Part shown: positions 26,035 to 43,692 of the stretch, one piece after another
How the letters are laid out: every line of letters begins with the position of its first letter
Numbering within the stretch: the first letter of the stretch is position 1
Origin: Escherichia phage MIZ6
Strand: one strand, 5' to 3'
Sequence record: OR192075.1
DNA length: 64,000 nucleotides
Position numbers and translations under genes: made by a program
The notes under the pieces: generated by a model
Told to the model about the DNA's origin: nothing
The model's input: the letters and a program-made list of their open reading frames with translations, nothing else
The model's database searches: none

Positions 26035-26514
26035 TGCTAAATCATTGCAATATTTTAGTGCCTTAGTTTGAAATTCTGCGCTGTTAAGTTCTTCATAACG
26101 GTCATAATCACCGTTTAATGCTGTCTTTCTTGCTTCTTGCTCTATCTGCATGTCAGACATGATAATACAGCGATCCCGTGCTTTCATCTTCTCAAGTTGT
26201 ATAGACTCTTCTTTCTGCTTGCGCAATTCTTCTTGACGCTTCTTTTCTTCTTGTGCTTTCTCTTCCCGCGCTTCTTTGATTGCATCCTTGAACATCTGCG
26301 TTTGTGGTGCTAAACCAACTTTAACGCGATCCACGTCTCGACGTTCCATTTTAGAAATAAAGCATGATTCGATCTGATCATCACTTGCATATGCTGCTTT
26401 ACATTCACGAAGCAAGAAAACCGGATCTGATTTAGCATTCATCATAGCTTCCATGTTGGCACAACCAGTAAGCATGAATGCAGCCGCAAGACCAATCAGT
26501 TTAATCATTTTCAT
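26029..26514 (-). CDS. Predicted lipoprotein with coiled-coil region
   Basis: 161 aa; signal peptide with lipobox LTGC; charged Glu/Lys/Arg-rich helix. Confidence 0.6.
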   Translation of the reverse strand: MKMIKLIGLAAAFMLTGCANMEAMMNAKSDPVFLLRECKAAYASDDQIESCFISKMERRDVDRVKVGLAPQTQMFKDAIKEAREEKAQEEKKRQEELRKQKEESIQLEKMKARDRCIIMSDMQIEQEARKTALNGDYDRYEELNSAEFQTKALKYCNDLAK

Positions 26515-27335
26515 TTAGTCACCTCACCGAAAATTGTAAATTGTCTACGATTCTCATCGCCGAAAGATTCTACTACGTCGTTTACCTTGACGCAAGTCCC
26601 GCGCGGTAAAATTACTTCACATTCGCAAGGGTTCCATGCAATTGACCCAACAACAAAACCTTTATGGTCTTTTACGTCAATTACCCATGATACATTACAA
26701 GAATGTTGCATCTTTCCGGTCATGGATTCATATCGATTCTCACAATAAAGGCTAGTGCTATTTGAAAGCCAGCCTCCAAAGATGATCGGTGTCATGCTGG
26801 TCGATACAAAGTTTTTAAAGGTAAACTCCTTATCTTCAATAATACGCTCTATTGTCTGAATGTCAAGATGTTGACCGCGATAAAGAGTACCGTTTAACTT
26901 TTCGGTTTTATCCATGACACAATCCATCAAATCAACAATCTCTGATATCTCATCGGTCATGTCTTCTTCCCCTAAGAGAGCACCATTTACCCATTCGTAT
27001 TGTTCAGACACATAATCACAGATTGCATTATATTCTGCTGGGGTTATGTTGTTATGTTTGTAATGTTTGAATACATTATCTCCAAAGTCTTCGGAGTGTA
27101 CTTCATACATCACATTAATGATTTTCTTGACAAATCCATAATCTTGTGTCTCACGCTCAAGGAAGCGGATAACCTTCACATAATCATCAAAGTTAATCTG
27201 ATCGCTGATCATCTCAGTGATCATGTAACCATTAATCCCCTCAATGTCATATGTTTCGATGTAATTATCCATACGTTCCATCATTGATTCGCGTGATTCT
27301 TCTGAAAGACGAAAATCCTGTAATTTCTTGAACAT
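26511..27335 (-). CDS. ADP-ribosyltransferase (Alt/Mod-family paralog)
   Basis: 274 aa; R-S-E triad context LYRG ... FVSTS ... CECEVILPRG parallels Alt. Confidence 0.7.
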   Translation of the reverse strand: MFKKLQDFRLSEESRESMMERMDNYIETYDIEGINGYMITEMISDQINFDDYVKVIRFLERETQDYGFVKKIINVMYEVHSEDFGDNVFKHYKHNNITPAEYNAICDYVSEQYEWVNGALLGEEDMTDEISEIVDLMDCVMDKTEKLNGTLYRGQHLDIQTIERIIEDKEFTFKNFVSTSMTPIIFGGWLSNSTSLYCENRYESMTGKMQHSCNVSWVIDVKDHKGFVVGSIAWNPCECEVILPRGTCVKVNDVVESFGDENRRQFTIFGEVTK

Positions 27336-27413: not shown

Positions 27414-29465
27414 TTACATTTTAAATTTATCTGGCATTGCGTCTACAGATACCAGATCAGCGATAAGCTGACGTAGAGTTGCCTTATCTGCTTTCTTACG
27501 TTCGGTTTTAGCTTCGCTAATGAAGCTGGAGAAAGACAGGTCAGAAGCAGGTTTAACAACACCTTCACGGATGAATGCATCACCGTCCGCGATCATCTCA
27601 CCAGATTCTTGTAATGCTGCCAGTTCACTTTTGTTCATAATATGTGCCTCAATGTAATAAGTTTCTTGTGAATCCGTCGATGCCGTAGCACGAGTTACCG
27701 TATCAAAGGATAACACAACACCGCGAGGAAGTAAAATCTCGCATTCTTTGTAAGCAAATGCTTTGTTACCTACTGGCAATACAGGGATGTTTTCCGCGCC
27801 AGCAATGGAGAAAGCAACATTAGCGCCACCTTCACCGCGAGAGCCAGCCATAGAATCAACACCAGCAATGGCACTAGCCACGTTTGCATTCCAGCCACCA
27901 AAAATGTTAGGTGCAAGGGAAGTGCTCACATAGTTTTTAAAGTAAAACGCTTTTTGCTTACGTGCAGTTTCCCACATTTGAGACCGGAAGTCCATACCAC
28001 GATACAGAATAGTACCCGGATCAAGTTTAACGCCATAGTTAGAGAAGGCATTATCCAGTGCATCGCACATCTTGACCAATTCTTCTGGATCTGCGATTCC
28101 CTCAAACTCTTCCAGCTTACGATCAGTTAGGAAGTTGTTCATATTGATGTATGCTGCATCGGCATATTCGCTCAACACAAAACCTTCCGCGCCCGGCAGA
28201 TCAAGATCAATATCTGCCATCATTTCACCCATGTTGCTAGCAATTGCTTCAAACATACCGGACGCAACATTACGAAGGGCATCGGTTTTAATCTGGGTGA
28301 TATGACTACGCAGCATTTCAGCTTTTACATCTGCTGGCATAGACTGGTCTACTCGATCCATTGCCAGGGCGGTGATCTTGTTTTCGAATACTTCCTCGCT
28401 CATGATTTCTTTTAAGCGTTTGATTGAGGCTGCGATAACTTCCGCAGACAACGGATCATATTGATCCTGAACTTTTACCAGTTCGCTTACTGCGTATTTT
28501 GCATCGGCTTCGCTTTCAAAAATAGTACGCATGAAACCATAGCGAGTGATAATATCACTTGTCCAGTCATTCAGAGAACGAGCGGTTGAACGTTCTAAGG
28601 CTTGACGATCAATCAGAGTATTAAACTGTTTCTTAGGTTCGGCTTCGGTGATATCTTCTTCCGGTTTAAGATTAATTTTTTCTGGATGATTCACATAGTC
28701 GCTGTTATAGGTCGCTTGAGTTTTCAGCATTTCTTCTTTAGTCAAACGAGATTTAGCCGCTACGCGTTGTTCTGCTTCCGCGTTTCGTTCTTCTTCTGAC
28801 ACAAGACTAGCCGCATACGCCTCATCTTTAGTCAGAGATTCACCAGTAGCCTTAGATACCCAGCGATCACCTAAATCACTTTCTACTTTAGTGAACAAGG
28901 ATTCATCAAGTTTAATCCCTTTAATCTTATCAATCGCCATCCCGCGACGCTTGACAACAACTAAAGCGATCTTTTTGCTGGTCATTACTTCCTGCTGGAA
29001 TACTTCAAACTTCGGTGTACGACGCACCAGACGCTCTATAACGCGCTTAACCAGTTCGGTCTTACCTTTCATGCGGGATACGTTAAAACGGAACATAACA
29101 GCGTCTAATTGCGCTTTACGGGCTGTTTCCATAACCACATCAAAAGCACTTGCCATAACTGCAATCGGGTTATCGCCTAGACCATTTTTAAGCTGTACAA
29201 TACGACCGCTTTTGTTCATTTCGCACAGTACAACATGTGCGGTCTTGTCACCCATACGAATGATTTTAGGTGTTTTGTTGGTGAAGTTACAAAGACGGAC
29301 AATCACATCTTTATCGCGTGTCTGTACTGCAAAAAGCTGTTTAGGATTCTGCTTAGGCTTTAAGCACTGTACCGGAGCAATACTGCCAAAGTTTTCTTCC
29401 TCTTCCGTCAACAGCCATTTCTCGAAAGATTCAATCATTAGATCGTCGATTTCTAAGTTAAACAT
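27414..29465 (-). CDS. alt: ADP-ribosyltransferase Alt
   Basis: 683 aa; LYRGMDF ... YVSTS ... YKECEILLPRG; size and position (after gene 54) as T4 Alt. Confidence 0.8.
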   Translation of the reverse strand: MFNLEIDDLMIESFEKWLLTEEEENFGSIAPVQCLKPKQNPKQLFAVQTRDKDVIVRLCNFTNKTPKIIRMGDKTAHVVLCEMNKSGRIVQLKNGLGDNPIAVMASAFDVVMETARKAQLDAVMFRFNVSRMKGKTELVKRVIERLVRRTPKFEVFQQEVMTSKKIALVVVKRRGMAIDKIKGIKLDESLFTKVESDLGDRWVSKATGESLTKDEAYAASLVSEEERNAEAEQRVAAKSRLTKEEMLKTQATYNSDYVNHPEKINLKPEEDITEAEPKKQFNTLIDRQALERSTARSLNDWTSDIITRYGFMRTIFESEADAKYAVSELVKVQDQYDPLSAEVIAASIKRLKEIMSEEVFENKITALAMDRVDQSMPADVKAEMLRSHITQIKTDALRNVASGMFEAIASNMGEMMADIDLDLPGAEGFVLSEYADAAYINMNNFLTDRKLEEFEGIADPEELVKMCDALDNAFSNYGVKLDPGTILYRGMDFRSQMWETARKQKAFYFKNYVSTSLAPNIFGGWNANVASAIAGVDSMAGSRGEGGANVAFSIAGAENIPVLPVGNKAFAYKECEILLPRGVVLSFDTVTRATASTDSQETYYIEAHIMNKSELAALQESGEMIADGDAFIREGVVKPASDLSFSSFISEAKTERKKADKATLRQLIADLVSVDAMPDKFKM

Positions 29466-30585: not shown

Positions 30586-30918
30586 TTATAGTCTCCTGAA
30601 TGGATCATCACGTAAATCAATATCTTTTAAGAACTCATCCCATGAATGGCGGATATTGTTCTTAATTCTCCAGATAAGCGCAGGGATTGAACGCTCTCCC
30701 ATCTGGAAGTAGGGATCATATGATCCGTATGCCCAATATGCTACTACAATTCCACAATCAGCGCAATAGTATTCTATTTCACTTGCTGGCGACCAAATTC
30801 CATCAATATGATCGGTGATCCTGCTTTCGATGTTATGGCTATGGCAATCAGGGCAACGGATGCAATGACCTTGTTTATCGTAATTTGACGTTAGAGAATA
30901 CTTAAACAATCTCATCAT
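30586..30918 (-). CDS. Zn-ribbon protein, possible degenerate HNH-like His-Me finger
   Basis: 110 aa; CIRCPDCHSH ... DHID ... CADCG; stop abuts downstream ATG. Confidence 0.45.
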   Translation of the reverse strand: MMRLFKYSLTSNYDKQGHCIRCPDCHSHNIESRITDHIDGIWSPASEIEYYCADCGIVVAYWAYGSYDPYFQMGERSIPALIWRIKNNIRHSWDEFLKDIDLRDDPFRRL

Positions 30919-31631
30919 AGATCCTTATTGGCTTCAAATACTGCCTTTGCGAATCCTCGCGGGGTAAGTGACCTGATAGTCTTTGTTCTGGTTCCTTTCC
31001 CGCCTAGCTTAGAATGCTGTTTACTGTACCCTTTATTAATCTGCAACGGTTTCTTTTCTGGCATTATAAAGCCTTGTCCGGTCCATAAGCAAGTCTTTTT
31101 CGGGTACATATCACGGGCGGCAATATACTCAGGAAACGTAGGATGTTTATCATCTTCCGGCAAATAACCGCCATATTCCCACGGATGGAACATGTAATCA
31201 GGCTTACGCCACATACTAGAGATAACGCTTACAGGATTCTCTATCATGTAGGGAACTCCTATCCATTCACCCAAATAAGCGGTTATTTTAGCTGCCCGTA
31301 CATCATGAACTTGAATCAATGGTCCTTGTTCTCGTTTCTTTCGTTCAAAGTGCGCAGCGCCACTAACAGCTAAATTGGTGCACGGTGGGAATGCAAATAT
31401 AATATCCGGTTTCCCCCATTCAAGGTCCATTGCTCTTTCCAGCCAGTTCAAATCAATCCAGGTGTTTACATAGGTAATGTTTGGATGTTCAAATCTGGTA
31501 TTATACTTTTTGTATGTACCGTGGTCGGCGTCATCCGCATTAAAGCAGACTACCTTATGACCTGCTTTAGCCCATTCTAGCCCCATTATCCCCGATCCGT
31601 CAAAGTTGCAGAATATTAATTTTTGTTTCAT
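30915..31631 (-). CDS. Minimal C5-cytosine methyltransferase-fold protein
   Basis: 238 aa; FDGSG (motif I-like), FPPCT (motif IV PC-like), ENP (motif VI-like) at DNMT-like spacing; too short for a full TRD. Confidence 0.45.
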   Translation of the reverse strand: MKQKLIFCNFDGSGIMGLEWAKAGHKVVCFNADDADHGTYKKYNTRFEHPNITYVNTWIDLNWLERAMDLEWGKPDIIFAFPPCTNLAVSGAAHFERKKREQGPLIQVHDVRAAKITAYLGEWIGVPYMIENPVSVISSMWRKPDYMFHPWEYGGYLPEDDKHPTFPEYIAARDMYPKKTCLWTGQGFIMPEKKPLQINKGYSKQHSKLGGKGTRTKTIRSLTPRGFAKAVFEANKDL

Positions 31632-37886: not shown

Positions 37887-38198
37887 TTAAAGTTTTTCCA
37901 TGATAACGGTCATAATTACATCTTCTGCGCGAGCGGTCAGATTATCAGCGTCAGCATGTGGGCGGCTGGTTGTTACAGAGATAACACCGTTGCGCACTGG
38001 TTTGATGTTGATATCAAGATGATCCGCGAAACGTTCGCCAGTTACAGAATGAATTTTGGTGTTAAATTCTTTTGCCAGTGCCTTGCGAACTTCACGAATC
38101 AGGGTAGCGTTTTTCAGTTGGTTCTCCGCGCTCATGGTCTTCTGGGTGTTCATGGTTCCGTCGAAGTCAATCATTGGCAGCGTTACGATGTATTTCAT
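37887..38198 (-). CDS. Hypothetical early protein (103 aa)
   Basis: ATG 38198 preceded by GGAGAATCAAAA. Confidence 0.5.
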   Translation of the reverse strand: MKYIVTLPMIDFDGTMNTQKTMSAENQLKNATLIREVRKALAKEFNTKIHSVTGERFADHLDINIKPVRNGVISVTTSRPHADADNLTARAEDVIMTVIMEKL

Positions 38199-38243
38199 TT
38201 TTGATTCTCCGTTTAAGAAAGTGTGTTTCGTTTTGATGTGTGT

Positions 38244-38272
38244 AGTATAGGGGATCACCGATCCCCTGTCAA
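38244..38272 (-). promoter_or_regulatory. Early promoter cassette (TTGACA-17-TATACT), palindromic GATC spacer
   Basis: Spacer GGGGATCGGTGATCCCC. Confidence 0.55.
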
Positions 38273-38284
38273 CAACTTTTTGAA

Positions 38285-38761
38285 TTATTTTTCTTGATGC
38301 TCGCGATCGTACTTTTCGAAATAAAATTCTACTGGCTGGTCGTGGATTGACAGCAAGCCAAAGCGTTTAGCCGCTCGCAATCCCATATTGCGCTGAATGT
38401 ACTTCTGGAAGTTCTCGCGTATACACTTACGCCAGTATTCTAAGCCCATACAGCTTTTATAAAGATTGCATTGCACACACGCCGGATTCATGTTATAAAG
38501 TATATCATGCTCCGGTTTATGCATTCCTACAACCTTATATTTCCATGATCCATCATCATTACGGGCAATTCGTCCATTTTCATCATAGACTACCTTTGAG
38601 CGTCGCAATACTGGTTTGATGTGGTCTGCGTGCCAGCGATCCCCTAGTTCCTCGCCACAATAGGCACAACGTCCACCATATTTCATTTTCAGGATCTGGC
38701 GTTGCTCTTTCTTTGACAATTTTTTAGGTTTAGGGGCTTTCGCCCCTTCATTATCACACAT
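38285..38761 (-). CDS. HNH endonuclease (free-standing, homing-endonuclease-like)
   Basis: CAYCG ... HADHIKP ... N ... CVQCN ... K motif; overlaps ligase stop by 8 nt. Confidence 0.7.
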   Translation of the reverse strand: MCDNEGAKAPKPKKLSKKEQRQILKMKYGGRCAYCGEELGDRWHADHIKPVLRRSKVVYDENGRIARNDDGSWKYKVVGMHKPEHDILYNMNPACVQCNLYKSCMGLEYWRKCIRENFQKYIQRNMGLRAAKRFGLLSIHDQPVEFYFEKYDREHQEK

Positions 38762-40250
38762 CGAATACCTCTTTTACTGTATTTGCAGTGGTCTTGTCGT
38801 AGCGAATACGTTTGATGATTGGGAGAAATAAAGAGAACTCCGGTTCATCTTCTTTACGTGATTTGCTGCGGATATACCCGTTGCATGTCATCTCAATAAC
38901 TTTTCCAATCAGGTTATGACGGTCAGCCCATAACATTTCTCGGTCGAGTTCATTTCGACGATCGAACGGAATTACACGTTCAGTACCATCATCACCTTTT
39001 TCGGTTGTAGTGTCGGTTAATCCCGATCCGGTGTTAGTCATCATTCGTCCGCACGCACTACGGACAGTAAAACCGCCTACCTTATTGGGGTCTTTACTAT
39101 GCGGATATACATCAACAATTTCCGCGTCGAAGTCAATCACTTCTTTAAATTTAACCTGATCTTTACTACGGCGATCTTCAAATACACCATGTAAATTTTT
39201 AAGGATAATACCTTCTAAGCCCATGTTGACATAACGATGATATACTTCGCGAGCTTCATCGATATTGTTAACTACAGTGTTTTCGATGATCTGAACACGA
39301 GGATCGTTAAGTTCTTCAACAATCTGTTTTAGTTCTTCGAATCGATCTTTATATTGCTTCGTTGCTTTCTCGTTTCCGTAATACACATCACGGTCGATAA
39401 CATCCCAGACAGTGTAAACAATACATTGGGCTTCTTCTTTTGGAATAGTTCCTTTAAGTGATTTGTTGAGGATACCATTTCCGGTCTGACGATCTGCAAC
39501 AACGGATTCTTTCACTGCTTCCGCTACTGGCGTTAATGGCATTTCCTCTTCTTCAAATATCCATGACAGAGTACCATCATAAACGCTTTCAACGAAGTTC
39601 TGCGCTGGTGTTTGCGAAAGGGTAGGCATATATACCAATTCGCCATCTAGAACAATTCCACGGCCTCGTAGACGCTCTAAAACCGCAAACAAATCATCAA
39701 GCCCTTGATAGGTATTACCTGAGCGGGTATAGATTGCTAATGTTTCCCCGTCAATATCAGCCATACCACGAGCGCCATCGCTTTTAAGTTGTGCATACGC
39801 CGGATACTTGATATTAGCAATAGTCTTATCAGAACATGACGATGCAAGGTGGCACGGCTGCTGGGGGATCAGTTTCTTCCATACCTTGTTTGCAGTAGTA
39901 GCGGAACAACCACATTCCAGATCACGATTCAGGACCATCATTGCAACTTTAGCATCATCTTCTGACAAGCAAGTCAGAGTATCGGTAACTAGCTGTAATG
40001 CTGCATTACCAGTTACTTGACGCGTGGCAAGTTTATTTTTAAAGACCTGTAATGCACCGGATAAAGACAATACAGACGAATAGCGAGACGGTTTATCGTA
40101 TTTCTTTACGCCAAACGTAACCTGTTTGCAATATGCCAGATAAAAGCATTCTTTCAGCGTTTCATTGCTCGCGGATTCTTTCAGAATCTTTTCTTTCAGC
40201 GATGTTTTGTCTGTTGCTGCAAGCTGATTAATGATATTAAGAATTGACAT
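38754..40250 (-). CDS. 30: ATP-dependent DNA ligase gp30
   Basis: Start moved to ATG 40250 (SD GAGGTG); catalytic lysine motif KSDGAR; resembles T4 DNA ligase along whole length. Confidence 0.95.
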   Translation of the reverse strand: MSILNIINQLAATDKTSLKEKILKESASNETLKECFYLAYCKQVTFGVKKYDKPSRYSSVLSLSGALQVFKNKLATRQVTGNAALQLVTDTLTCLSEDDAKVAMMVLNRDLECGCSATTANKVWKKLIPQQPCHLASSCSDKTIANIKYPAYAQLKSDGARGMADIDGETLAIYTRSGNTYQGLDDLFAVLERLRGRGIVLDGELVYMPTLSQTPAQNFVESVYDGTLSWIFEEEEMPLTPVAEAVKESVVADRQTGNGILNKSLKGTIPKEEAQCIVYTVWDVIDRDVYYGNEKATKQYKDRFEELKQIVEELNDPRVQIIENTVVNNIDEAREVYHRYVNMGLEGIILKNLHGVFEDRRSKDQVKFKEVIDFDAEIVDVYPHSKDPNKVGGFTVRSACGRMMTNTGSGLTDTTTEKGDDGTERVIPFDRRNELDREMLWADRHNLIGKVIEMTCNGYIRSKSRKEDEPEFSLFLPIIKRIRYDKTTANTVKEVFDV

Positions 40251-40716
40251 TTTCACCTCGTTTTGTTAAACGTTCACGAATATCATTGAGGATACTACAA
40301 AATTCCGATTCAGTCAATATAGTCTTTAACGGATCAGTTCCACCTATGCTATGACGTAATTTCTTATTTCCGGTAGAGAGTAATGCTTTACAAAATTCTG
40401 GGTTATTCCGTGCCATCGTAACAAATGCCAGATGTACCAGTCTGTAATAATGCTCACTCATTCGATGAATCGGGCGACCCTGAAAATATAACATGTGATT
40501 CTCAATCTTTTCAGTTCTTCCGGTTCTTTTTGCTTTGCCACCGTGCATCAAAAAGATTTCTCTTTGTCTCTGAGGGTTCTTAAATCTTAGCCCCTGTAAA
40601 AATCCTTCTGTGCTGTTAATATCGCAACCAAATAGACGGAATGGTCTTTTATTGAAATTACTCAATTCACCCGATGGATAAGGTCCACCCGCATAGATAT
40701 CAATTTCAGAAGTCAT
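40237..40716 (-). CDS. NADAR-like (YbiA/DUF1768-like) domain protein
   Basis: 159 aa; IDIYAGGPYPSGELSNF ... FRLFG ... STEGFLQGLRF resembles NADAR N-terminal signature. Confidence 0.5.
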   Translation of the reverse strand: MTSEIDIYAGGPYPSGELSNFNKRPFRLFGCDINSTEGFLQGLRFKNPQRQREIFLMHGGKAKRTGRTEKIENHMLYFQGRPIHRMSEHYYRLVHLAFVTMARNNPEFCKALLSTGNKKLRHSIGGTDPLKTILTESEFCSILNDIRERLTKRGENVNS

Positions 40717-40870
40717 TGAAACTAATCTCGCTAATCAGAGAGAACGGATCATAATCGTCATTAGGAATATCGATAGTAATCGAATGAGGGTTTACCCATA
40801 CACCAAACTGGTCTTCTTCGGTGAATACTTCGGTATGGATTTCGTGGATGTTTACATTCATAGTTTTCAT
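40706..40870 (-). CDS. Hypothetical small acidic protein (54 aa)
   Basis: ATG preceded by AAGGAA; overlaps next gene start by 11 nt. Confidence 0.3.
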   Translation of the reverse strand: MKTMNVNIHEIHTEVFTEEDQFGVWVNPHSITIDIPNDDYDPFSLISEISFNDF

Positions 40871-40914
40871 AATAAAATTTCCTTAATAATCAATAACTTA
40901 CAAAATCATATAGC

Positions 40915-40942
40915 CAAAATATAGGCGGGATTATTTCCCGCC
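40915..40942 (-). terminator. Rho-independent terminator after gene 31
   Basis: GGCGGGA-TTATT-TCCCGCC with T-run on minus strand. Confidence 0.6.
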
Positions 40943-40953
40943 GTTTAAAATCA

Positions 40954-41277
40954 TTAACCGTAAACTACCACAATATTCTGTTTGTGCGTTACAGTCCATT
41001 TCAGGTCGATCTCTTCTTCCTTCTTAACGCCGTTAATAACGTCTGGATGAGGAACTTTATTCATCTTGCCATGTGGCAGTAAAACAGTTTTACCCAGCAA
41101 TTCTTTATCTACCGTTTCACCGATATCAATAATCTTACCTACCAGCGGAATCTCGCCCATAGTGCGCTTTTGCTCAATAATGATCCCCATAGAGCTTTTT
41201 ACTTCTGTCCCTGCGCTTTCTGCTTTAGCTTCAATAATCACATAGTCACCAAGTGCTTTAGGAGTTTTAACGGTCAT
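40954..41277 (-). CDS. 31: Co-chaperonin gp31 (GroES-like)
   Basis: 107 aa; GDYVII ... VPHP pattern and position as T4 gp31. Confidence 0.65.
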   Translation of the reverse strand: MTVKTPKALGDYVIIEAKAESAGTEVKSSMGIIIEQKRTMGEIPLVGKIIDIGETVDKELLGKTVLLPHGKMNKVPHPDVINGVKKEEEIDLKWTVTHKQNIVVVYG

Positions 41278-41318
41278 AATTTTATTACCTCTTCAAATCA
41301 ATACAGTTTAATGATGAA

Positions 41319-41633
41319 TTATTTATAAATTTCGACGATCTGCGCTGGAGTCAGCCCGTCTACATTAATCAGACTATCAAGCCCAAAACTACGGAAACCT
41401 TCAACTGCAATTTCATATACTGGCAAAGATGTTTCTGATTCTTTACGCGGTTTTTCAACATTAGGAACTAACCACTTTTCGTATGTTTCGAAAGGCATCA
41501 GTGCCGGATCTCGCGTGGCGATCATCTCACGGACAGTACCATCTTTCTTAGTAAACTGCAAAGAGTGAGTACCGACCGAAAACATTTTCTTTAGTGCTTC
41601 ACGAAGTGCGATATTATCAACTTGTTCAGTCAT
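41319..41633 (-). CDS. Hypothetical protein (104 aa)
   Basis: ATG at 41633; overlaps cd stop. Confidence 0.45.
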   Translation of the reverse strand: MTEQVDNIALREALKKMFSVGTHSLQFTKKDGTVREMIATRDPALMPFETYEKWLVPNVEKPRKESETSLPVYEIAVEGFRSFGLDSLINVDGLTPAQIVEIYK

Positions 41634-42132
41634 TATCAATACCCTTCAAATCAGTCAATAATGCTTTTGGAATACGCGTGATCGTAATATCTGCATTATT
41701 CAGAATATCAGCCCAATCACGCCCACCATTTCGATCATATGTGTCGCAATAGTATAGATGTTTAATTCCACTGTTTGCAATTGCTTTAGCGCAATCTGGA
41801 CACGGTGAAGCAGTACACCACATACTAGCGCCTTCAATCGATACACCGCTACGTGCAGCAAACAAAATAGCATTTAATTCAGCGTGGATTTCGTTTTTCT
41901 GTGACCATGCGCTATGTTCTGGTCGTTTTTCTGGGATCATTTTGCCGTCATCATCCAGCCAACCGTTTTTATGTGCATGACAGCTACAATTTACTTGCCC
42001 TGCTGGAGTTCCGTTAAATCCAGTAGAAATGATTCGCCCGTCTTTTTCAATTAGTGCGCCTACCTTCCACGAAACGCATTTAGAGTTCTTTGCGATTAGA
42101 TAGGCGATCTGCATGTAAGTTTGTGACAACAT
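41626..42132 (-). CDS. cd: dCMP deaminase
   Basis: HAELNAI ... PCPDCAKAI zinc-binding deaminase motifs. Confidence 0.9.
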   Translation of the reverse strand: MLSQTYMQIAYLIAKNSKCVSWKVGALIEKDGRIISTGFNGTPAGQVNCSCHAHKNGWLDDDGKMIPEKRPEHSAWSQKNEIHAELNAILFAARSGVSIEGASMWCTASPCPDCAKAIANSGIKHLYYCDTYDRNGGRDWADILNNADITITRIPKALLTDLKGIDND

Positions 42133-42158
42133 AATATAATCCTCACATCACATATTAA

Positions 42159-42362
42159 TTAACCGTATACGCGAAAGTATTCTACTGATCCGTCGCTATA
42201 CTGTTTTACATTGAATGTATTCACACCATGATTATTTCTCATGATGACATATACACTGCGACGTTCATCGCTAAACGGCATAACTGGCGCTGGTTCAATA
42301 TCAACACTAAAACCACGTTTAGCAAGTGCTTCGCCTAATTGCTTGAGTTTATCGGTAAACAT
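42159..42362 (-). CDS. Hypothetical small protein (67 aa)
   Basis: ATG overlaps pseT stop (TAATG). Confidence 0.45.
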   Translation of the reverse strand: MFTDKLKQLGEALAKRGFSVDIEPAPVMPFSDERRSVYVIMRNNHGVNTFNVKQYSDGSVEYFRVYG

Positions 42363-43240
42363 TAAAAGTCTCCGTAGTTAACCTGAAAACATTCTACACC
42401 AATTGAGCGGTACATGTCAACCACTTGATCACGGTCATCTACTGCCAACACAACATGATAACGCGGTGCAATTTCAGAGAAGAAAATCTCTTTCTTCACT
42501 TCATGATCAGGACGACGATCATTAGTTTCACGTTGAAAATGATCGCTAGGTTCAATACCCTGTTCACGCAGCCATTGCAGAGTATCTTCTTCGCAAACAT
42601 CCTCACGCCCTGAGCATGTAATGATACGATAACCATTATCACGATACAGTTTAAGCATTTCGATCACTTGCGGACGCGGTTTATCTTCTTTGACCTTTGT
42701 CCAGTCAAACGGATGACGACCGCCCTTATCCGCTAATGTTCCATCAATATCAAAGATCACTGCCTTCGGCAGCATGGTATTCGGTTTGTATACTTCTTGA
42801 CCCATATATTCCTGCATCAGATAAAATTGGTTGCGCAAATTAGAAAGTGGAATTGCTTTCTCGCCGCGATAGAAATTACGTTTCTTTAGTGTCTCAAATG
42901 ATTCATTGAACACTTGTTCAGTATACACCGCGTTAAATTCTTTTGCAAGTTCTTTGTAGAATACACGATGTTTTTCTTTCAGGTTGGTATCGGAGATAAT
43001 GATACTCAATCCGCGTGATAGAGTCTCACGAGCAATCATTCTCTGAATAGACTCTACCAGCTTTTCTTTTTCCTTAGTATACTTGTATTTCAAATGTGAG
43101 TCAACACCAAACAACATAAGACGAAGATCATCACGATTCACATTACGATAATTACTAAACCGTTTACACGTTTCCATAGCCCATGTAGTTTTACCGGACC
43201 CAGAACAACCAACGGTTAAAATCACTTCACATTTCGGCAT
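42362..43240 (-). CDS. pseT: Polynucleotide kinase / 3'-phosphatase
   Basis: From ATG 43240; Walker A GCSGSGKTT and HAD phosphatase motif VIFDIDGTL. Confidence 0.9.
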   Translation of the reverse strand: MPKCEVILTVGCSGSGKTTWAMETCKRFSNYRNVNRDDLRLMLFGVDSHLKYKYTKEKEKLVESIQRMIARETLSRGLSIIISDTNLKEKHRVFYKELAKEFNAVYTEQVFNESFETLKKRNFYRGEKAIPLSNLRNQFYLMQEYMGQEVYKPNTMLPKAVIFDIDGTLADKGGRHPFDWTKVKEDKPRPQVIEMLKLYRDNGYRIITCSGREDVCEEDTLQWLREQGIEPSDHFQRETNDRRPDHEVKKEIFFSEIAPRYHVVLAVDDRDQVVDMYRSIGVECFQVNYGDF

Positions 43241-43692
43241 TATTTCTCCTTCGGTTTGCACCGTTCCTCATTAAGTTCTTTTCGATAATAACACATGATC
43301 AACTTACTTTCAAGTGTATATCTCTTAATATCCGCAAGCCAGACTCTGAATTTTTGGGAGTCCTCCCACGACATAGAAACTCTAGGTTTACCGTCTATTG
43401 TATCCACTTTCAGGTCAATGTCAACTTTTTCTATTGGTGCTGGTAGTTGAGGATGTAATTTCGGTTCCTGTGAATAATGGTCCATTGTACACGAAGAAAG
43501 AGCAAATACAATAGGTACAACGAAGACATGGATTATTGCGGTCTGAAAATTCTTATGTGCTTTCTTAAACATCCAGTGTATCACGAAAATTGAAAACACC
43601 ATCAGGATAATAATGCTTGCACATATCCCCAGATAATCAACCAGATTAAAATTGCTTATCTGCTCTTGCGTAGGCAATATTTCTATGCTCAT
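43240..43692 (-). CDS. Putative o-spanin-like lipoprotein (start uncertain)
   Basis: Lipobox-like FALSSC after hydrophobic segment; position equivalent to T4 pseT.2. Confidence 0.4.
   Translation of the reverse strand: MSIEILPTQEQISNFNLVDYLGICASIIILMVFSIFVIHWMFKKAHKNFQTAIIHVFVVPIVFALSSCTMDHYSQEPKLHPQLPAPIEKVDIDLKVDTIDGKPRVSMSWEDSQKFRVWLADIKRYTLESKLIMCYYRKELNEERCKPKEK

Follow-up and report, generated by a model that had tools for sequence, protein, structure and literature searches.

A Krischvirus orthologue of T4 gene 30.3 (adfN), a predicted anti-DarTG1 NADAR protein, with a lysine-to-arginine substitution at the phosphate-binding position

The open reading frame (ORF) at positions 40237..40716 (minus strand) of a 64,000-nucleotide stretch of the Escherichia phage MIZ6 genome (OR192075.1), hereafter the window, starts with ATG, ends with TAA and encodes 159 amino acids. 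Residues 5-45 read IDIYAGGPYPSGELSNFNKRPFRLFGCDINSTEGFLQGLRF, in agreement with the translation quoted in an earlier note on this DNA, in which a NADAR-like protein was proposed here. We identify the protein as the Krischvirus (RB49-type) orthologue of the product of T4 gene 30.3 (adfN, the anti-DarT factor NADAR). Its counterpart in Escherichia phage MIZ2 (OR167178.1), the coding sequence WNA14324.1, has identical coordinates and is annotated as "hypothetical protein". The surrounding region, 38000-43500, is 100% identical to MIZ2 and shares 98-99% identity with RB49 and some 57 further Krischvirus genomes, and the 30.3 orthologue is intact in all 59 close phage genomes. Features of the locus are listed in Table 1.

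Table 1. Features at and around the adfN orthologue, in window coordinates
Feature	Position	Strand	Description and basis
adfN / gene 30.3 orthologue	40237..40716	minus	159-amino-acid gp30.3-type NADAR, predicted DNA guanine-ADP-ribose glycohydrolase
Catalytic Glu codon GAA, E37	40606..40608	minus	Corresponds to T4 E36, PnNADAR E43, E. coli C7 NADAR E88
R44 codon AGA	40585..40587	minus	Position of the phosphate-coordinating Lys: T4 K43, PnNADAR K50, C7 NADAR K95
His codon CAT, H122	40351..40353	minus	Corresponds to T4 H123; replaces the last-strand Glu/Asp
C-terminal alpha-helix, residues 136-157	40246..40311	minus	DSSP on the AlphaFold2 model
Gene 30, ATP-dependent DNA ligase	38754..40250	minus	Pfam DNA_ligase_A_M, E 2.8e-22; MIZ2 GenBank annotation
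54-amino-acid ORF, unknown function	40706..40870	minus	ORF list; phrog_15277, E 3.7e-42; coding sequence in MIZ2
Terminator-like GC-rich hairpin	40924..40942	minus	GGCGGGAAATAATCCCGCC then TATATTTTGG (T-run), directly 3' of gene 31; consensus scan and direct reading

The protein matches Pfam PF08010, Phage_30_3 ("Bacteriophage protein GP30.3"), scoring 130.1 bits (E 6.5e-38, cut-off 36) over profile positions 2-138 of 138, an assignment far above chance, and in PHROGs it belongs to phrog_652 (function unknown, E 9e-45). Alignment with T4 gp30.3, taken from NC_000866, gives 38% identity with 151 of 152 residues aligned (E 6e-30). The genes of the window run in the order polynucleotide kinase (PNK), dCMP deaminase (cd), 31.1-like WYL_2 protein, 31, the 54-amino-acid ORF, 30.3 and 30. 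In T4 (NC_000866), 30.3 also lies between 31 and 30, flanked upstream by 30.4-30.9 and rIII and downstream by 30.2 and 30.1. Homologues of T4 30.1, 30.2 and 30.4 were not found by tblastn within the window, and the absence of 30.1 and 30.2 accounts for the direct contact of adfN with the ligase gene. This vicinity of a DNA ligase had been pointed out in the earlier note, and inspection of the sequence revealed that the two genes overlap by 14 nucleotides.

A tblastn search of the phage collection disclosed the protein in 1509 records, near full length in 1501 of them; most of these are T4-like myoviruses that infect enterobacteria, Aeromonas, Acinetobacter or Vibrio. The word-indexed homologue search retrieved seven proteins with a single sequence as a query and 2344 with an alignment. 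The profile compared with the representative library also contained the NT5C domain of fusion proteins, so its 3443 hits mix two domains and do not give the family size; family membership was re-derived with a domain-only hidden Markov model. The fused architecture was observed on chromosomes of Bacteroidales (Muribaculaceae/Prevotellaceae), in hundreds of proteins of about 322 amino acids with an N-terminal gp30.3-type (His) NADAR and a C-terminal NT5C domain (proteins P0009-P0123; L004:2846-7661, also L005, L006 and L007). One of them, P0123, is encoded in a co-directional cluster comprised of SIR2, three small ORFs, ADP_ribosyl_GH, NADAR::NT5C and a 223-amino-acid ORF, with RelA/SpoT adjoining, a bacterial cluster with an NAD/ADP-ribose theme. 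Comparison of the window protein with catalogued defence systems gave a sub-threshold match to the NCBIfam model 'DS32_2 NADAR family anti-phage protein' (14.3 bits, cut-off 240) and nothing in PADLOC, and therefore we do not consider it a member of any of these systems.

Similarity to NADAR proper is remote at the sequence level. The match to Pfam NADAR, PF08719, is sub-threshold (15.6 bits, E 0.02, cut-off 35.1), as are similar matches of 16 of 22 family members (best E 1.3e-4). When the family profile was compared with PDB sequences, E. coli YbiA was the sole match (E 0.028), and in the profile alignment E37 of the window protein and K44 of the family stand opposite E and K of the YbiA motif SEHYFQAQK. 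The link suggested by these matches is weak but consistent. The 159-amino-acid protein has the NADAR alpha+beta fold in the predicted model, and this predicted fold confirms the relationship. The protein thus belongs to the sister family PF08010 and to the superfamily with the NADAR fold, and by score not to PF08719. Of the NADAR signature recognised in the earlier note, the fold holds according to the model, while the sequence resemblance is remote and below the PF08719 cut-off. Published classifications place phage gp30.3 proteins in the histidine-type branch of the superfamily (Schuller et al. 2023, PMC11543638; Toxins 2024, PMC11125620).

Residues of the active site were located by pairwise alignment with T4 gp30.3 and compared among non-redundant relatives. 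E37, in the motif STEGFLQG, is equivalent to T4 E36, and glutamate occupies this position in 133 of 135 relatives; the catalytic role of the equivalent glutamate has been described (PMC11825919, PMC11543638). The counterpart of T4 H123 (motif LKHSIAS) is H122 (motif LRHSIGG), and 127 of the 135 have histidine at this position. Histidine in the last strand, instead of the glutamate of YbiA or the aspartate of DarG1, is the hallmark of phage NADARs (PMC11125620, PMC11543638). The window ORF is seven residues longer than T4 gp30.3, and the model predicts an intact C-terminal helix, the element which is missing from the inactive RB69 allele (PMC11825919).

Function of T4 gp30.3 is known from several published studies. 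Resistance of T-even phages to DarTG1 was mapped to gene 30.3, renamed adfN (Johannesman et al. 2025, PMC11825919), which is required and also suffices for it. T4 and T2 deleted for adfN fail to plaque on DarTG1 hosts, and expression of adfN rescues RB69, a phage whose own copy carries a frameshift and is without the last helix. The E36A, K43A and C-terminal truncation mutants of T4 AdfN are impaired, rescue by K43A being partial, and the purified enzyme strips ADP-ribose from DarT1-modified DNA (all PMC11825919). According to the same study, T4 AdfN is fully active only during T-even infection, independently of DNA modification, and apparently needs a T-even factor for full activity (PMC11825919). 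The gp30.3 NADAR of an E. coli-infecting phage hydrolyses guanine-ADP-ribose, and not thymine-ADP-ribose, in DNA, and cannot protect uninfected cells from DarT1 (Toxins 2024, PMC11125620); the protein used in vitro in that work was identified as T4 gp30.3 by Johannesman et al. (PMC11825919). In addition, a transposon-sequencing preprint from 2025 found T4 30.3 to be conditionally essential on DarTG1 hosts (bioRxiv 10.1101/2025.11.20.689424). Within the gp30.3 family, guanine-ADP-ribose hydrolysis and protection from DarTG1 have been shown for T4 and T2 AdfN only.

Considering these data together, the window protein probably acts in the same way as T4 AdfN, as a NADAR that removes from guanine in phage DNA the ADP-ribose added by DarT1, and thereby as an anti-DarTG1 factor. 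The present analysis establishes the ORF, its family, orthology and synteny with T4 30.3, the NADAR fold, the catalytic glutamate, the phage-type histidine and the C-terminal helix; guanine-ADP-ribose in DNA as the substrate, and the anti-DarTG1 role, are suggested by what has been published on T4 AdfN and other NADARs. The proposed enzyme would be a small stand-alone N-glycosidase of NADAR fold, expressed from the gene 31-30 region in the early phase of infection. It would bind ADP-ribose placed on guanine of phage DNA by the host toxin DarT1 of the DarTG1 defence and hydrolyse the bond between ribose and guanine, so that ADP-ribose would be released and the DNA would become replicable again. 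The net effect would be that of an orphan, phage-borne counterpart of the DarG1 antitoxin. The suggestion in the earlier note that a NADAR at this locus could counter a host DarT-like toxin is supported by the T4 orthologue and its action against DarT1 of DarTG1 (PMC11825919, PMC11125620, bioRxiv 10.1101/2025.11.20.689424). The idea is not new, because the gene is T4 gene 30.3, for which it has already been published, in a well-populated family; this identity had escaped recognition in the note.

Several points weigh against such a transfer of function. Identity to the characterised T4 enzyme is just 38%, evidence for the NADAR fold comes from a predicted model, and we found no literature report linking AdfN with Krischvirus or RB49. 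Krischvirus is placed outside Tevenvirinae and may or may not supply the T-even factor needed by T4 AdfN. Finally, the lysine that binds the ADP-ribose phosphates is arginine here, and the equivalent K95R change in E. coli C7 NADAR is not protective in vivo (PMC11543638).

The substitution retains the basic charge, although the residue is not lysine. Its distribution was surveyed in a domain-only alignment of 140 representatives at most 50% identical to each other, 135 of which have a residue at this position: lysine in 132, threonine in two and arginine in one, the sole arginine protein also being devoid of the catalytic glutamate. Outside the representative set, arginine was observed only in the window protein, in a 98%-identical cluster of 167 member sequences (P0001) and in a 68%-identical metagenomic relative (P0002), which keeps all other invariant residues. 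All of the nearest outgroup relatives (about 42-47% identity) have lysine. In the sequences compared, arginine combined with an intact active site is thus limited to the Krischvirus clade and is a fixed trait there. Arg44 probably still coordinates the phosphates of ADP-ribose. In E. coli C7 NADAR, K95R retains hydrolysis of guanine-ADP-ribose in vitro but does not rescue cells from DarT1 (PMC11543638). The gene is unbroken in the 59 close genomes and the other active-site residues are kept in relatives diverged to 68% identity, from which we argue that the protein works.

Fixation of arginine in Krischvirus could also reflect a functional shift, either towards a different substrate (another ADP-ribosylated base, RNA or a DarT1 variant) or as an adaptation to a background without the T-even cofactor; we regard this as unlikely. 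If true, comparison of the natural lysine and arginine alleles could reveal determinants of NADAR substrate specificity and the basis of the phage dependence of AdfN. It is quite unlikely that the change from lysine has weakened or retargeted the enzyme, leaving a poor or non-functional anti-DarTG1 factor or one directed against a different ADP-ribosylating system. The near-universal lysine of the non-redundant relatives (132 of 135), the loss of antitoxin function in vivo by C7 K95R in spite of its hydrolysis in vitro (PMC11543638) and the partial rescue by T4 K43A (PMC11825919) speak for it. However, arginine retains the positive charge, C7 K95R is catalytically active in vitro (PMC11543638), and R44, along with every other invariant residue, has been kept across a clade diverged to 68% identity, with the gene intact in all 59 genomes, a conservation pattern of a functional and not of a decaying gene.

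Soluble ADP-ribose derivatives or ADP-ribosylated nucleotides, representing immune signals, toxic by-products or targets of nucleotide-pool clean-up, are very unlikely to be the main substrates in place of DNA. This role is in line with a proposal by Iyer et al. 2022 and with hundreds of bacterial relatives in the exact subfamily which are fused to the NT5C 5'(3')-deoxyribonucleotidase domain; clustering of the fusion with SIR2 and ADP-ribosylglycohydrolase suggests nucleotide-level chemistry in at least some members. The proposal nevertheless predates the experiments on T4 AdfN, the phage protein stands alone without a nucleotidase domain, and the T4 family member has shown activity on ADP-ribosylated DNA together with a clear DarTG1-dependent phenotype. 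Least credible, to the point of being nearly dismissible, is a role of the enzyme in undoing or restraining the ADP-ribosylation that the phage's own transferases carry out, as the earlier note had considered. Both ADP-ribosyltransferases (ARTs) named there do exist: the ORF at 27414..29465 (683 amino acids; Alt-like in the MIZ2 annotation) and that at 26511..27335 (274 amino acids; ADP-ribosyltransferase in MIZ2) match Pfam ADPrib_exo_Tox with E 2e-9 and E 4e-16, respectively, and are paralogues in their catalytic core, 37% identical across 109 amino acids (E 1e-16). Their genes lie some 11-14 kb from adfN, within the same early region, and Iyer et al. 2022 had remarked on the proximity of NADAR and ART genes as an association among early genes. 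Yet T4 likewise has alt in the neighbourhood of 30 and 30.3, and proximity is thus explained by inheritance of the T4-type gene order and does not point to a specific operon. Moreover, T4 Alt modifies proteins (T4 record annotation), NADAR activities shown so far concern ADP-ribose bound N-glycosidically to guanine in DNA, not thymine-ADP-ribose, and the T4 adfN phenotype is fully accounted for by host DarT1. Tuning of the phage's own ADP-ribosylation found no support, and none of the rival explanations is preferred to the function already published for the T4 orthologue.

The ATG of the ligase gene (40250) lies within the final codons of adfN and is preceded by GAGG (GAGGTGAAAATGTCAATTCTTAA, minus strand), and because of this arrangement we propose that the two genes are probably co-transcribed and translationally coupled. 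On the other side, the stop codon of the 54-amino-acid ORF overlaps the adfN start by 11 nucleotides. The terminator-like hairpin behind gene 31 may be the upstream boundary of the unit formed by the 54-amino-acid ORF, adfN and the ligase gene; the number of terminator-like sites in the region equals chance expectation, so that the hairpin is no more than suggestive. In the promoter and terminator scan, sites were no more common than in shuffled sequence and no promoter could be assigned to adfN. The simplest interpretation is that the 54-amino-acid ORF, adfN, ligase and an HNH endonuclease form one co-directional unit. The endonuclease (158 amino acids, 38285-38761, minus strand; Pfam HNH, phrog_2118) directly follows the ligase gene with an overlap of eight nucleotides, in the position occupied by alt.1 and alt in T4, and could represent a mobile (homing) insertion. 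Over this stretch the alignments of several close relatives are split into two or three pieces.

Between alt and the ligase gene, the segment 29533-38258 (minus strand) spans about 9 kb with about 27 small ORFs, nearly all 'hypothetical', and includes a DNA methyltransferase (30915..31586); T4 has alt.1 alone at this place. Hyperplastic regions of this kind are typical of T4-like genomes. Beside gene 31, for which the Cpn10 match is sub-threshold only (E 0.004), the 31.1-like protein (41319-41639, minus strand) matches Pfam WYL_2 (Sm-like SH3 beta-barrel, E 1.2e-9), in agreement with the T4 31.1 annotation. Genes for the T4 factors AdfA (61.2) and AdfM (tk.4, the macrodomain anti-DarTG2 factor) were not found by tblastn in the 64-kb window of the 163.7-kb genome.

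As for practical consequences, the gene is labelled "hypothetical protein" in MIZ2 and the listed close relatives, and could be renamed adfN-like NADAR (putative DNA ADP-ribosylglycohydrolase, anti-DarTG1). Phage therapy candidates of the RB49/Krischvirus type would be predicted to resist hosts carrying DarTG1. The natural lysine-to-arginine variant offers a ready allele for studying ADP-ribose binding by NADARs or the T-even restriction of T4 AdfN. Significance beyond annotation is small; the clade-specific substitution is the sole new detail, in a genus for which the T4-type function of the gene is predicted by orthology.

Compared with known NADAR systems, the window protein differs from the antitoxin DarG1, the NADAR component of DarTG1 (BC4488 subfamily; Geobacter lovleyi NADAR 8BAT and E. 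coli C7 NADAR; PMC11543638), in several respects. Its gene is adjacent to DNA ligase and the 54-amino-acid ORF and not to DarT1; the protein is devoid of an N-terminal extension (159 amino acids, compared to 219 in DarG1), its NADAR core starting from about residue 4; it has His122 where DarG1 has aspartate in the last strand; and sequence identity in the model-based structural alignment is about 11%. Membership in DarG1 is ruled out by the lack of a DarT1 neighbour, the lack of the extension and histidine in place of aspartate. E. coli YbiA and PnNADAR represent the YbiA subfamily (PF08719; 2B3W, 8BAU), for which the window protein scores 15.6 bits in comparison with the cut-off of 35.1. YbiA is encoded on the chromosome, and a link to riboflavin-intermediate N-glycosidase activity has been made for it too; membership in this subfamily is ruled out by H122 at the position of the subfamily-defining last-strand glutamate. 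AdfN-Bas32 and AdfN-Bas60, too, are phage-encoded NADARs, and these independently acquired proteins counter DarTG1. They belong to other NADAR clades and are active without T-even infection, whereas the window protein falls into the T4-type (His) clade.

With regard to T4 gp30.3 (AdfN) itself, the window protein has Arg44 in place of Lys43, its gene overlaps the ligase gene directly where T4 has 30.1 and 30.2, and it comes from a Krischvirus, outside Tevenvirinae. Both proteins belong to PF08010 with 38% full-length identity and similar size (159 and 152 amino acids), are built as a stand-alone NADAR core without an N-terminal extension and are encoded in the slot between genes 31 and 30, and the catalytic glutamate, the phage-type histidine and the C-terminal helix are common to both.
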